Source: Escherichia coli (lineage in GTDB: Bacteria; Pseudomonadota; Gammaproteobacteria; Enterobacterales; Enterobacteriaceae). Taken from it: a stretch of 64,000 nt of DNA. The stretch lies in the NCBI RefSeq assembly GCF_024298765.1, contig NZ_CP101210.1. One strand, written 5' to 3'. Of this stretch, positions 55,317 through 61,300 are shown piece after piece. The position numbers were made by a program. How positions within the stretch are numbered: the stretch's first letter is position 1; the number at the start of each line of letters is the position of its first letter.

Positions 55317-58300
55317 TAACTCGGTGGCCAGTTTTTGTTGACCACTTCACTAAGACCGCACGAATATAATGGTGGGTTACCGCCAAACGAATCAGAAAAC
55401 CGATACTGGAAAAACTCTAACGCGGTGGCCAGTTTTTGTTGACCACTTCATACCGCAGGAGGCATGATGGAGAGCATTAATAATCAAGTGCAGTCGGTAC
55501 GCCAGTTGCTGGCCATTCCCCAACTGGCCATCCCAAGCTATCAGCGACCTTACCGCTGGGGCTCCAAGAATATCTCGGATCTCTTTACCGATTTGGCAAC
55601 CCATCAGGACAAGAGCGCCTACCGGCTGGGCTCGGTGGTGTTTCATCAGCACACCGATAGTGAGCAGGGCGAAATGCTTGATATCGTCGATGGTCAGCAA
55701 CGCACCCTGACCCTGATGTTGACCGTCAAGGCGCTGATCGAGGTGCTGGATAACGAAAATCGCAGTGGCAAAGAGAAGAGTATCCGGTTTCAACGTCAGG
55801 ATCTGCGTGAGCAATTGCAGGTCTTGCGTGGACCTATCGATGCGTTTATGCAGCGCCAGCGCTTCCCCAGCCGGGATTCGGAGTTCAACCTCAGACGTAA
55901 CTATCTGGAGTTGCGTCGGCTGGTGGCCCGCCCTGAGTTTGACGAGCAGCAAATTGACTTTCTGCTCAACCGCTGTCAGGTGGTCTGCTTTGTACTGCAG
56001 GATATCTCGGAGGCGTTCCAGTTCTTCGATTCGCAAAATGCCCGGGGGCGCGATCTGGCTCCTCACGATCTGCTCAAGGCATTTCACCTGCGCGAGTTTG
56101 CCGGTCATGAGGCCAATCTCAAGGCCGAGGCGGTCGCCCATTGGGAGCGCCTGCCAAGCGACGAGCTGGCCAATCTGTTCGCCCTCTATCTCTATCGGGT
56201 ACGCCAGTGGGCCGAGGGCAAGTCGGCCCGCTACTTTGGCAAGGGGGAGGTGGATCTCTTCAAGGGGGTCAACCTAGATCGGGTAGGGCATTATCCTTAC
56301 GTGGAGTCGCTGCGCATCGCCCACCACTTTGTCGATGAGTACAACAGCCAGTACCAGCGCAAGATTGACGGCCAGTACATGACGTTTCCCTTTCATCTCG
56401 ACCAGATGATCATCAATGGTCGGCGCTTTTTCGAGATGGCCGAGTACTACCAGACGCGGGTGGCCGCCATCGTGGCCGAGGAGTCTGATTCCGGCAAGGC
56501 GCAATCTGCCACCCTGCTCGGCGAAACGCTGACACCGATGGCCAGCAAGGTGCTATCGACCCTGGGCAGCTACGAGCGTCGCCACCGCACCGGGGATCGT
56601 TATGTGCGGGCCATGTTCGACTGCGCCCTGATCTTCTATATCGACAAGTTCGGCAGCCAAGGGCTGTCACTGGCCATCGAGAAGTGCTTTATCTGGGCCT
56701 ATCGCTGCCGCATCCGCCAGCAGGTAGTGCAGTTGGCAACCATGGATAACTATGTGCTGGAGCACAATCTGATCCGTGCCATTCGTGATGCTCGTCTGCC
56801 GGGAGATCTGCACGGCTTCCCTTTGCCTAGCATGAGCAGTCGAGAGAACAAGAACAATCGCAATGGTGCCGAAGATGAGCTGGTCGGGCTGTTTCGGGAG
56901 ATGAAATATTATGAATGATGCAGGCGTTCGCCCCTTTTCCATTCGTGCACTGCTTGAAGATCGCGCCCGCTATCTGGTGCCCATGTACCAGCGCAACTAT
57001 GCCTGGGGTGAGGGAGAGATCACCCAGCTGCTGCAGGATGTGCTGGATTATCAGCAAAAATTGGTCAGTGGTAAGGGGCCGCAAACCTACTATATCGGCA
57101 CCCTGGTGGTGTTTGCCCGGGACGATGGCAGTTTCGAGGTAATCGATGGCCAGCAGCGCTTTACTACCCTCTCTCTGCTGGCCAATTGGCTCAAACATCA
57201 CGCGATAGATTCGGTGGATATGAGCTGGTATCAGACCATCAACCTCGCTTTTGAGAGTCGCCCGATATCGAGCCATACCTTCGAGCGCTTATGGCAGGGG
57301 GTTGCCCCCGACGATTTGCGGGGGAGTACCTTCAATGAAGGTTTGGTGAACGGTTTTGAGCTGATTGGCAAGGCAATGGCGGAGCTTGGTTTGGTAGGGG
57401 CTAAACTGACGGCCTTTTGCGACTACCTCTTCAAGCATGTGCAGATCTCTCGTATCGAAGTACCCAAGGATACCGATCTCAATCACTTCTTCGAGGCGAT
57501 GAACAATCGCGGCGAGCAGTTGGAAAAGCATGAAGTGATCAAGGCGCGGCTGATGGAGACGCTGAACCAGATACCCGAGGAAGAGCATCGTCGCCAAAGT
57601 ATTCATATCCTGACCCGGGTATGGGATGCCTGCGCCAATATGGAGCGCTATATCCAGTACGGCTTTACCCCGCAAGAGCGCCACCGTCTGTTTGGTGAGA
57701 GCGACTGGGGTCAGTTTGTGCCCCGTGATTTTGCCCATCTGCTTGATCTGCTAGGATCCCCAAACACGGCCGACGCTGCCGATAAAAGCCGTGCAGCTGC
57801 CGGTAGCCAAGGGCGCACCTTGTTGGCCATTTTGCAGGATGACAAGCTTGATGGTGAGCAGACGGTGGAGGAGGAGAGCGCAGGCTCCGAGCGCTTTAAC
57901 AGCGTCATCAACTTCTCCAACTTCTTGCTCCATGTGCTGCGACTCGTGAGCCGCGACCCGGGTAATACGGAGGGGGTGCCGCTTGATGATAAACAACTGG
58001 TCGATCAGTTTGAGCTGCGAGTGATAAGGCAACCGGATCCAGTAGCGGCAGTTCAGCGTTTTATCTATGGCCTGTTAAAGAGCAAGTATCTGTTTGATCA
58101 GTTCATCATCAAGCGCGAGTTTGCCGATGGCAAGGATAGTTGGAGTCTGAAGCGGCTGCACTGGTATTCGGAAAAGAGCGTCAGTTACATCAATACCTTT
58201 GACAAGGATGAAAATGAGAATGGTTTCTCTGGTGTTAACCGGCGGGTCCTGATGTTGCTGTCGGCGTTTCATGTGTCGACCCCGACCCTGGTTTACAAAC

Positions 58301-61300
58301 ATTGGCTGAATGGTGCACTGAGATATCTGTTCGACAATTGTCACCCTGATCAACCGGTGGATGCCGGGGCTTATCTGTCCTATCTGGAGAGTCAGGCTCG
58401 CCGCTTTGTCTTCCAGCGCTTTTTAGCGCCTGGTGAAGGGGCTTCCTATTACCAGATGCTCTACCTTGATAACGCCCTGTTGCCCGCCATCAATGTGGAT
58501 GAGAGTTGGCACAAGGTGATTACATCCAAACTTCGCTTCGGTCATATCGAGAACAACTTTGTCTTCAACTTCCTCGACTATCTGCTGTGGGTACGAGATC
58601 GGAATAGCGACAAAGTTGCTGGCTCCTTTGAGTTCACTTTCCGCAGCTCGGTGGAGCACTTCTCACCCCAGCATCCGATGGATGGCTATAAACCGGTTGA
58701 GCAGAGTGCACTCCATTCGTTTGGCAACCTTTGCCTTATCAGCCACAGCAAGAACTCGCGCTTGAGTAACTTCCAGCCGCAACAGAAGCAGGAGCACTTT
58801 GAAGCAAGCCTTGCCAATAACCAGACTGATAGTCTTAAATTGCTTGCTATGATTCGGCTGATGAAAGATAAAGGTCGTTGGCTGGAAGATGAGATAGCTG
58901 TGCATCAACAAGATATGTTGCAGGTCTTACTATCCAATCAAATTCAGCAATAACGGATTGAATCTGTTGGTGATGCTGCCAACTTACTGATTTAGTGTAT
59001 GATGGTGTTTTTGAGGTGCTCCAGTGGCTTCTGTTTCTATCAGCTGTCCCTCCTGTTCAGCTACTGACGGGGTGGTGCGTAACGGCAAAAGCACTGCCGG
59101 ACATCAGCGCTATCTCTGCTCTCATTGCCGTAAAACATGGCAACTACAGTTCACTTACACCGCCTCTCAGCCCGGTACGCACCAGAAAATCATTGATATG
59201 GCCATGAATGGCGTTGGATGCCGGGCAACCGCCCGCATTATGGGCGTTGGCCTCAACACGATTTTCCGCCATTTAAAAAACTCAGGCCGCAGTCGGTAAC
59301 CTCGCGCATACAGCCGGGCAGTGACGTCATCGTCTGCGCTGAAATGGACGAACAGTGGGGCTACGTAGGTGCTAAATCACGTCAGCGCTGGCTGTTTTAC
59401 GCGTATGACAGGATACGGAGGACGGTTGTGGCGCACGTCTTCGGTGAACGCACTCTGGCCACACTGGAGCGTCTTCTGAGCCTGCTGTCGGCCTTTGAGG
59501 TCGTGGTATGGATGACGGATGGCTGGCCGCTTTATGAATCACGCCTGAAGGGAGAACTGCACGTTATCAGCAAGCGATTTACGCAGCGCATTGAGCAGCA
59601 TAACCTGAATCTGAGGCAGCATCTGGCAAGGCTGGGCAGGAAGTCACTGTCGTTCTCAAAATCGGTGGAGCTGCATGACAAAGTCATCGGGCATTATCTG
59701 AACATAAAACACTATCAGTAAGTTGGAGTCATTACCCAGCTCATCGCGCAGTGAGCCAAAATCCGCATCTGAAGCACGGTCAAAAAGGTAATCCAGTTTG
59801 CGATTTACGTCGCTCAGCTGGTTGGTAACTATTTTCAACCCGGACTCCAGATCACCTGGGCCAGCTTCAAGGCAGCGCCGCAGATACTCTGACCGATTAC
59901 CACCTGAAACCAGGTCTATATAGGCCAAAAGTTCATCTGATACTTTTGCGGTTATTGTTGGCATCCAGTCCTCACTTTGTGCATTTTTTAAACGAAAAAA
60001 GGGTGTCTAATACGGTGAAATCATAGTATTACCAAAGTAATAAATAAAAATTGTTTTAAATCAGTAGGTTAGATTAGATTTGTAATGCCTGGGTAATACC
60101 GCAGCATGGCTAAATTTGGTTTTTTTTCTTTTAAATCAGTTGGATAGCGTGATTTATCACGCTGCGTTAGGTGTATAGCAGGTTAAGGGATAAAAAATCA
60201 TCTTTTTTTGGTAGGGCGATCTCCGTAGGTTAAGGGTCATTTGGCTAAAAAGCGTCCTATTCTTTGATGGTCATGCTTGCATGACCATCTGAGCAACCAA
60301 AAACTACAGATAAACTACAGATAAACTACAAAAAACGTTTTGCCTTAGTATTGGAAGACTACAAATAGACTACAATAAAACTACAAAGAAACTACAAAAA
60401 ACATGACAGACTACAAATAGACTACAAGAATACTACAGATAAACTACAAAACTCGATTGACCCCTTCTTACGAGTGTTGTAGAGTCATTTTCATACAACG
60501 GAGGGGGTTATGAATAAACCAGCAGATCTGAAACCCCGCAACTTATCGGCTGCTGTCAGATTGCGCCTAAATGAAATCGAGAACTGGCTGGACAGAGGGC
60601 TAACGCGGCATGAAATTGCTGAAATCCTCGACAGCGAATACAGCTTTTCGGTAACAGCCAAAGGGCTTGAGATGGCACTGTATAGAACGCGGCAAAACCG
60701 AAAAAATGTATTGCACAATACACATGATAAGAGTAGCGCGAAGGGTGCAGCGGAAAGTGTATTGCACAATACACAACCGTCTGAGCCTGAAGCGCAGGAA
60801 AGTGAAAAAGCAGAGAGTCCCGGCATTATTGATAAAGAATTCTTCAATAAAATCGGTGAGAATTTCGACCCTAAGAAGTTCAACAAAAAATTCTGAGGTG
60901 ATTTATGAAAGTAGCGGTAATTAATTACAGTGGCAGTGTTCGTAAAACCTTAATTTCATCTTACCTGTTAGCTCCGCGCCTGACTGGTGCAAAGTTCTAT
61001 GCGGTAGAGACTATCAACCAGTCTGCTTCCGATCTGGGTATTGAAAATGTGACCAGTTTTAAAGGTGACGACTTCTCACGTTTGATTGAGGGGTAATGAC
61101 TCCAACTTACTGGTAGTGTTTTAGCGAAGTTAAGTGACACAATAGTTTAATCTGGAGGAATTAATGAAGAGTTATGAGTAATTTTAATTTTCTAACAGAC
61201 ATCAGCCCTGAACTCGCTCAATTTGGTAAAAGTGCCGAGCTGTATTACCATGATGATAAGCAGGTAGCACTAGTGAAACTTAGGTGTTTTACTGAAGTAG

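Follow-up and report, generated by a model that had tools for sequence, protein, structure and literature searches.

A 64,000-nucleotide stretch of Escherichia coli DNA (NCBI RefSeq assembly GCF_024298765.1, contig NZ_CP101210.1), referred to here as the window, contains two adjacent genes whose products carry DUF262 domains. Both genes are intact, and the locus very probably encodes GmrSD-ECOR17, a type IV restriction system of two proteins, GmrS1 and GmrSD2, that falls within the TgvAB-like branch of GmrSD systems. The system has already been characterised in E. coli strain ECOR17, where GmrS1 (APT18_07330) and GmrSD2 (APT18_07335) form a distinct two-gene type IV restriction enzyme (Silas et al. 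2025, Nat Commun, PMC12373910), and the window pair is not new, either as a type of system or as a variant of one. An initial annotation, made from the sequence of the window alone, had proposed a modification-dependent type IV system of the GmrSD/TgvAB kind, a proposal borne out by the domains, the motifs and the near-identity to the ECOR17 proteins. Its further suggestion that this organisation might be uncharacterised in E. coli does not hold, as the publication of ECOR17 GmrS1/GmrSD2 shows (PMC12373910). Nothing in the locus is new as a discovery, since the system, its requirement for two genes, its substrate and the phage inhibitor have all been published.

The two open reading frames (ORFs) lie on the plus strand, contain no internal stops and overlap by 8 nucleotides (nt; ATGAATGA). 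The ORF listing, the Pfam assignments and the motifs agree with the earlier description of two intact overlapping genes, the first encoding a DUF262 protein and the second a DUF262-DUF1524 protein. The first gene, gmrS1 (gene A, 55467..56918, plus strand), encodes 483 residues comprising a DUF262/ParB-like NTPase domain and a DUF7834 domain but no nuclease motif. A 484-residue product had been assigned to it initially. An ORF of that length does exist, with an alternative start at 55464, but the gene begins with ATGATG, and an AGGAGG box lies 5 nt ahead of the second ATG. The start is therefore likely to be the second ATG, at 55467, in agreement with the published protein and with RefSeq WP_000443938.1, the accession of protein A in the matching genomes. 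The second gene, gmrSD2 (gene B, 56911..58953, plus strand), encodes 680 residues, in which a DUF262 NTPase/sensor domain is connected by a helical linker to a DUF1524 His-Me nuclease domain; the window protein has the RefSeq accession WP_063120628.1.

Profile searches returned PF03235 (DUF262, GmrSD_N) in both proteins and PF07510 (DUF1524, GmrSD_C) in the second, as had been anticipated. In the following, the Pfam residue numbers of protein A refer to the 484-residue ORF and its motif numbers are counted from Met2; all domains are encoded on the plus strand. The DUF262 domain of GmrS1 is encoded at 55524..56087 (residues 21-208, 4e-28) and is followed by the mostly alpha-helical C-terminal DUF7834 (PF25202, 56121..56858, residues 220-465, 1.4e-76). 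The roughly 350 residues originally described as unassigned in the first protein thus largely fall in a named Pfam domain of unknown function; a literature search on 'DUF7834' found nothing. In GmrSD2, the DUF262 domain is encoded at 56944..57555 (residues 12-215, 4.6e-29) and the His-Me finger nuclease domain at 58573..58923 (residues 555-671, 4.4e-11), with the codons of the catalytic pair E582-H583 at 58654..58659, the site of a published double mutant (PMC12373910). The QR, DGQQR and FxxxN signatures occur in both proteins, in GmrS1 as YQR (25-27), DGQQR (75-79) and FDSQN (187-191) and in GmrSD2 as YQR (26-28), DGQQR (79-83) and FEAMN (194-198). The His-Me motif (E582-H583-x-x-P, N606, N615, N620) is confined to GmrSD2, where it is made up of EHFSP (582-586), GNL (605-607), HSKN (612-615) and SN (619-620). 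When GmrS1 was compared with GmrSD2 by BLASTP, the DUF262 domains alone aligned (25% identity, E 2e-9), and the comparison gave no sequence support for an origin of DUF7834 from the GmrSD2 linker. The G+C content of the module, 54.0%, is modestly higher than that of the window (48.4%) and of the block just upstream (47.8%), consistent with the earlier remark that the module is more GC-rich than its surroundings.

For comparison with the characterised system, the ECOR17 protein sequences were reconstructed from the Clustal alignments that accompany PMC12373910 (Supplementary Dataset 5) and aligned with the translations of the window. Protein A, read from its second methionine, is identical to ECOR17 GmrS1 (483/483 residues), and protein B is identical to ECOR17 GmrSD2 at 676 of 680 positions (99.4%). 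None of the four substitutions (D134Y, E158D, R348C and N352D, window to ECOR17) falls within a motif, and E582 and H583, the residues altered in the published E582A/H583A mutant, are the first two of the sequence EHFSPQHP in protein B. WP_000443938.1 belongs to cluster CLS_004 of PMC12373910, and WP_009309939.1, the GmrSD2 allele of Klebsiella plasmids, to cluster CLS_003. Two ORFs antisense to the gmrS1/gmrSD2 junction, at 56667..56942 (minus strand, 91 residues) and 56827..57276 (minus strand, 149 residues), extend 244 nt and 84 nt upstream of the GmrSD2 start, to 56667 and 56827, respectively, as described in PMC12373910. They are probably not genes, since truncations that keep these regions do not replace GmrS1 (Silas et al., PMC12373910). 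The window and ECOR17 thus agree in the order of the two genes and their 8-nt overlap, in the nuclease residues E582/H583 and in the antisense ORFs (84 and 244 nt), as well as in the junction with an upstream insertion sequence (IS) of the IS3 family. They differ in the four GmrSD2 residues; in addition, the upstream IS of the window is truncated and carries a 102-bp duplication, and IS1 replaces the gene of the DUF4011 protein Hhe. Because both proteins are near-identical to those of ECOR17 and the mutant site, the antisense ORFs and the cluster accessions all agree, the window can be taken to carry the published GmrSD-ECOR17 system.

In laboratory E. coli, leaky, low-level expression of the pair blocks T2, T6 and T4Δip2Δip3 but not T4 that carries ip3; neither gmrS1 nor gmrSD2 protects alone, and both are required (PMC12373910). 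Defence is abolished by truncation of GmrS1 and by the E582A/H583A double mutation in GmrSD2. T4 with hypo-modified DNA, containing hydroxymethylcytosine (hmC) only or unmodified cytosine, escapes restriction. Plaquing is restored by Ip3, a protein that T4 injects, but not by Ip1 or Ip2. When co-expression of GmrS1 and GmrSD2 is induced, gross cellular toxicity results, and transposon insertions in gmrSD2 render native ECOR17 phage-sensitive (all PMC12373910). Earlier, Srikant et al. had found that T4 requires IPIII to infect ECOR17 and that this requirement was not explained by deletion of the annotated defence systems of ECOR17, including the type I restriction-modification (R-M) system and Hhe.

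A mechanism can be proposed from the biochemistry of BrxU, SspE and Eco94GmrSD together with the mutagenesis of TgvAB and GrwAB. GmrS1 and GmrSD2 probably act as a complex (a hetero-oligomer), in which the DUF262/ParB-like domains of both proteins would bind and hydrolyse nucleoside triphosphates (NTPs) through the DGQQR pocket. The same domains are predicted to sense DNA containing glucosyl-hmC. Sensing would license the sole DUF1524 His-Me nuclease, that of GmrSD2, to cut the incoming phage genome. By analogy, GmrS1 with its helical DUF7834 domain would be the obligatory non-catalytic sensor or regulator subunit.

Among the closest known systems is TgvAB (VC1767/VC1766) of the Vibrio cholerae island VPI-2, with a DUF262-only TgvA and a DUF262-DUF1524 TgvB (PMC11411939; bioRxiv 10.1101/2024.04.05.588314). 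Both genes are needed, the DGQQR and His-Me residues are essential, and the system acts on T-even phages with glucosylated hmC (PMC11411939). The initial annotation was right to point to a resemblance to TgvAB, and the TgvAB authors already list the window pair as a homologue: Table S5 of PMC11411939, compiled with MacSyFinder, contains it as AOT32537.1/AOT32538.1 of E. coli FORC31. The pair appears there again as AHM87930.1/AHM87929.1 from a plasmid of Klebsiella pneumoniae NJST258_1, a plasmid that is also among the DNA matches of the module. TgvAB and the window pair have in common two genes, the first DUF262-only and the second DUF262 plus DUF1524. BLASTP against the first 399 residues of TgvA and TgvB, taken from Table S5, gave 25% identity between protein A and TgvA (E 1e-21), the alignment remaining colinear as far as the C-terminal domain, and 23% identity between protein B and TgvB (E 2e-21). 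A Pasteurella multocida pair from that table, of the Pasteurella/Psychrobacter type, is nearer to the window pair (31% identity, E 1e-65). With identities of 25% and 23% to TgvA and TgvB and a closer match to the P. multocida pair, the window pair is a distant member of the TgvAB-like branch. The genomic setting also differs. TgvAB owes its name ('Type I-embedded') to its position inside an active type I operon, where hsdS and hsdR flank it, whereas the window pair follows hsdM/hsdS and IS remnants, with no hsdR downstream, and in related loci the pair lies after hsdR and a YgjP gene and before Hhe. According to the TgvAB authors, homologues outside type I clusters are 17 times more frequent than those inside.

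GrwAB from the VSP-II island of the V. cholerae WASA lineage (PMC12137116) likewise combines one DUF262-DUF1524 protein with one DUF262 protein that has extra domains of unknown function, and both proteins and the NTPase motifs of both are needed (PMC12137116). Unlike in the window pair, the nuclease protein of GrwAB is encoded first, and GrwAB also targets Queuovirinae with 7-deazaguanine-modified DNA. The modification-dependent, NTP-stimulated single-chain enzymes GmrSD-CT596, Eco94GmrSD, BrxU (GmrSD-ECOR21) and SspE share the DUF262-linker-DUF1524 architecture and the motifs with GmrSD2. However, they act as one polypeptide, whereas GmrSD2 has no activity in vivo unless GmrS1 is present (PMC12373910), and outside DGQQR they can hardly be aligned with GmrSD2, as is also seen in the published BrxU alignment. 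Each is countered by a different inhibitor encoded by T4: CT596 by Ip1, ECOR21/BrxU by Ip2 and GmrS1/GmrSD2 by Ip3. A BREX-embedded GmrSD of the BrxU type was rejected as an identification of the locus; no BREX genes are nearby and the window pair is not single-chain.

The target range of the pair might be broader than, or other than, glucosyl-hmC DNA and include the arabinosyl-hmC DNA known as a target of TgvAB, the 7-deazaguanine DNA known as a target of GrwAB, or plasmid DNA that is modified, so that the T-even phenotype would be only part of the activity. The assays of GmrSD-ECOR17 covered only T-even phages and T4 modification variants, whereas TgvAB protects against Tequatrovirus and Mosigvirus, and GrwAB, of similar architecture, targets Queuovirinae and Tevenvirinae; the module is, moreover, very common on conjugative Klebsiella plasmids. 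Against these points stands the outcome of the published substrate tests, in which T4 with hmC or cytosine was not restricted. We consider a wider range rather unlikely, and it would extend the explanation of the locus as GmrSD-ECOR17 instead of replacing it.

The 3.49-kb module occurs at a DNA identity of at least 99% in 275 of 5426 complete E. coli genomes (approximately 5%), almost always on the chromosome, and in 404 of the 406 matching plasmid records (395 Klebsiella, mostly conjugative). The exact GmrS1 sequence was found in 19,710 blocks of the assembly collection. Comparison of the sequences indicates that the module has spread, at an identity of at least 99%, between E. coli chromosomes and Klebsiella plasmids. 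The related loci examined (L003-L012, L014 and L015, e.g. L003:12674-18409) provide a picture of its usual neighbourhood, the commonest order being hsdM-hsdS-(SEC-C protein)-hsdR-YgjP-like protease, IS remnants, gmrS1-gmrSD2 and Hhe. In most of these loci a complete type I R-M system and a YgjP/SprT-like protease gene precede the pair, and in most other genomes and plasmids the gene for Hhe, a DUF4011 helicase of 1885-1911 residues with known anti-phage activity, begins approximately 190-260 nt downstream of it. Together they form a conserved three-system defence island, only the middle part of which is kept in the window.

The surroundings of the pair in the window reflect this loss and match the decayed type I R-M and IS-scarred context described earlier. 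Type I remnants at 53663..54969 (plus strand), recognised from the annotation and the ORFs, consist of an hsdM (N-6 DNA methylase) that is frameshifted and lacks its N-terminal part and, after it, an hsdS fragment of 112 residues; remnants of the same form recur in L010 and L012. The module adjoins this type I remnant and does not lie within one. Between the remnant and gmrS1 is a 5'-truncated IS3-family element (54924..55450, plus strand) that retains the 3' part of the transposase gene and the right end, which stops 13 nt short of the first gmrS1 ATG. A terminal stretch of approximately 102 bp of this right end is tandemly duplicated (55246-55349 and 55348-55450). The window shares an identical junction of the IS3-family element and gmrS1 with K. 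pneumoniae pKLZT-2, with L014 and L015, which carry the exact ECOR17 GmrSD2 allele, and with L005, an E. coli chromosome. In view of this identity across the window, the Klebsiella plasmid, the contigs with the ECOR17 allele and another E. coli chromosome, the IS3-family end has travelled with the module. The 102-bp duplication, in contrast, is absent from all four loci compared (pKLZT-2, L014, L015 and L005), pKLZT-2 and the ECOR17-type contigs having a single copy. Two IS1 copies were also found: copy 1 at 50457..51224 (plus strand) forms the left boundary of an IS-bracketed block, and copy 2 at 58969..59736 (plus strand) begins 15 nt past the gmrSD2 stop codon, at the site occupied by Hhe in related loci. 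The two copies are in direct orientation, are 98% identical over their first 300 nt and bracket a block of approximately 9.3 kb in a composite-transposon-like arrangement. The block contains a Gp2-family pseudogene, the IS3-family element, the hsdM/hsdS remnants and gmrS1-gmrSD2.

A scan for promoters and terminators revealed no suitable candidate for gmrS1 above the expectation from shuffled sequence, and thus no convincing sigma-70 promoter; the sole promoter-like match near the start of gmrS1 overlaps the start codon. Several points weigh against equating the window copy with a functioning GmrSD-ECOR17. The upstream IS of the window is 5'-truncated and has a duplicated end whereas the ECOR17-type contig has a complete IS, and in the published heterologous assays the genes were expressed from a promoter other than the native one (PMC12373910). 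The window GmrSD2 differs by four substitutions from the ECOR17 protein that was assayed, and the phenotype is predicted for the window allele. Complex formation, NTP dependence and in vitro cleavage are, for GmrS1/GmrSD2, presumed from related systems. Expression of this copy is the main uncertainty, in view of the lack of a convincing promoter, the truncated and duplicated IS end and the use of a non-native promoter in the published assays.

The genes could accordingly be intact but silent, or too weakly expressed to defend the cell, a passenger relic in the IS1-bracketed block whose upstream region was lost in IS events. The short distance of 13 nt from the IS3-family end to the ATG, the truncation of the IS and the duplication of its last 102 bp, the overlap of the only promoter-like match with the start codon, the replacement of the downstream neighbour Hhe by IS1 and the decay of the adjoining hsdM and hsdS would all fit such a relic. 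However, Klebsiella plasmids and the contigs with the exact ECOR17 GmrSD2 allele have the same proximal 130 bp upstream, and native ECOR17 became sensitive to phage when transposons had inserted into gmrSD2 (PMC12373910). Leaky expression sufficed for defence (PMC12373910), and the ORFs are uninterrupted across hundreds of genomes with at least 99% identity, which would hardly be expected of toxic genes that have long been silent, even if the module has spread only recently. A silent copy is therefore judged improbable, more so than a widened target range.

The gross toxicity of induced co-expression (PMC12373910) might suggest that the pair works by abortive infection or as a toxin, killing the infected cell, and does not restrict phage DNA directly. 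Defence, however, requires the active site of the nuclease and depends on how the phage DNA is modified, and it is countered by a protein that is co-injected with the DNA (PMC12373910). The related TgvAB protected directly against one of the phages tested, Bas35, at all multiplicities of infection used, and its authors consider direct action likely on the others too, even though these overwhelm TgvAB at high multiplicity. Abortive infection is thus a very improbable explanation of the pair, and restriction by GmrSD-ECOR17 is preferred.

Automated annotation has placed the two proteins only at the level of the family. The best PADLOC matches are to the HEC-06 (3.4e-30 for A and 1.7e-33 for B), Orf5 and mREase_IV models; the SspE model matches as well (8e-14 for A and 1e-19 for B). 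The best-scoring stretch of the HEC-06, Orf5, SspE and mREase_IV matches is in the N-terminal DUF262 region (for HEC-06, Orf5 and mREase_IV approximately residues 1-115 of models 560-600 residues long), so these matches allow a family-level assignment only. HEC-06, in addition, has been described as a single-protein GmrSD-like system, unlike the two-protein window pair. NCBIfam contains no model for protein A or protein B. A sequence search of the PDB found no solved structure close to either protein, the matches being limited to remote DUF262 chains (E 0.05 for A and 3e-6 for B); the best structural matches were SspE and the DUF262 chain of a DndBCDE-DndI entry, and BrxU likewise matches the DUF262 domain. 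That the pair is the restriction arm, or a fragment, of a phosphorothioate (Ssp/Dnd) or BREX system and not self-contained, as the SspE-model and structural matches might be read, is scarcely credible and the Ssp/Dnd form of this reading was rejected, because the SspE and Orf5 matches mainly cover the shared DUF262 N-terminus, the flanks of the pair are free of ssp, dnd and brx genes in the window and in ten independent related loci, where the neighbours are type I R-M genes and Hhe, and the two genes alone are sufficient in a laboratory strain (PMC12373910).

With GmrSD-ECOR17 as the preferred identification, the two genes now annotated as encoding a 'DUF262 domain-containing protein' can be renamed gmrS1 and gmrSD2, for a type IV system that acts on glucosyl-hmC DNA and is inhibited by Ip3. 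The GmrS1/GmrSD2 system is unnamed in RefSeq, NCBIfam and PADLOC v2, and pipelines leave the genes under the generic designation because the PADLOC v2 matches are N-terminal and NCBIfam has no model. The naming bears on predicting the host range of T-even-like therapeutic phages, of which those without an Ip3-like inhibitor should be blocked. As the system is present in approximately 5% of complete E. coli genomes and on several hundred Klebsiella plasmids, it is relevant to the host range of such phages.

Other features of the window were noted in passing. From approximately 61174 to beyond position 64000 (plus strand), about 2 kb downstream of gmrSD2, a gene for a 979-residue AAA/RecD-like ATPase is followed by one for a 474-residue TPR protein. 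The first gene runs past the end of the window, and the whole pair is found at L001:17711-22068. Both proteins are full-length matches to PDC-M16, a candidate defence system of PADLOC (PDC-M16A, E=0; PDC-M16B, 1.7e-251), which makes the pair a second, uncharacterised candidate defence module. Between 60290 and 60462, about a dozen 11-bp units (consensus ACTACAAATAA / AAACTACAGAT) are clustered with an 11-nt phasing directly upstream of a plasmid-type stbA (60510..60896). They look like putative StbA-binding iterons of a plasmid-derived segment that is now chromosomal.

The region from approximately 32000 to 47900 was mapped by means of the colinear genome NZ_ABACVG020000001.1 (L013). It contains an apparently intact type I R-M system with hsdM, hsdS and a 1038-residue HsdR with an EcoR124_C-type domain. 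ISKpn26 and a gene for a GTPase lie beside it, and next comes a CP4-like island, in which cbtA/cbeA, a gene for a tyrosine integrase and a truncated Ag43 gene are found. A lutABC-dld-lactate permease cluster separates this R-M system from the gmrS1 block, whereas the two are adjacent in L010 and L012. Positions 1-25000, which include the ecp operon, vat and fdeC, match chromosomes of avian pathogenic E. coli at 100% identity (O78:H4 strain APEC E12049 is an example), from which it follows that the window is E. coli chromosomal DNA. The left part of the window differs from the genome that exactly matches its right half.

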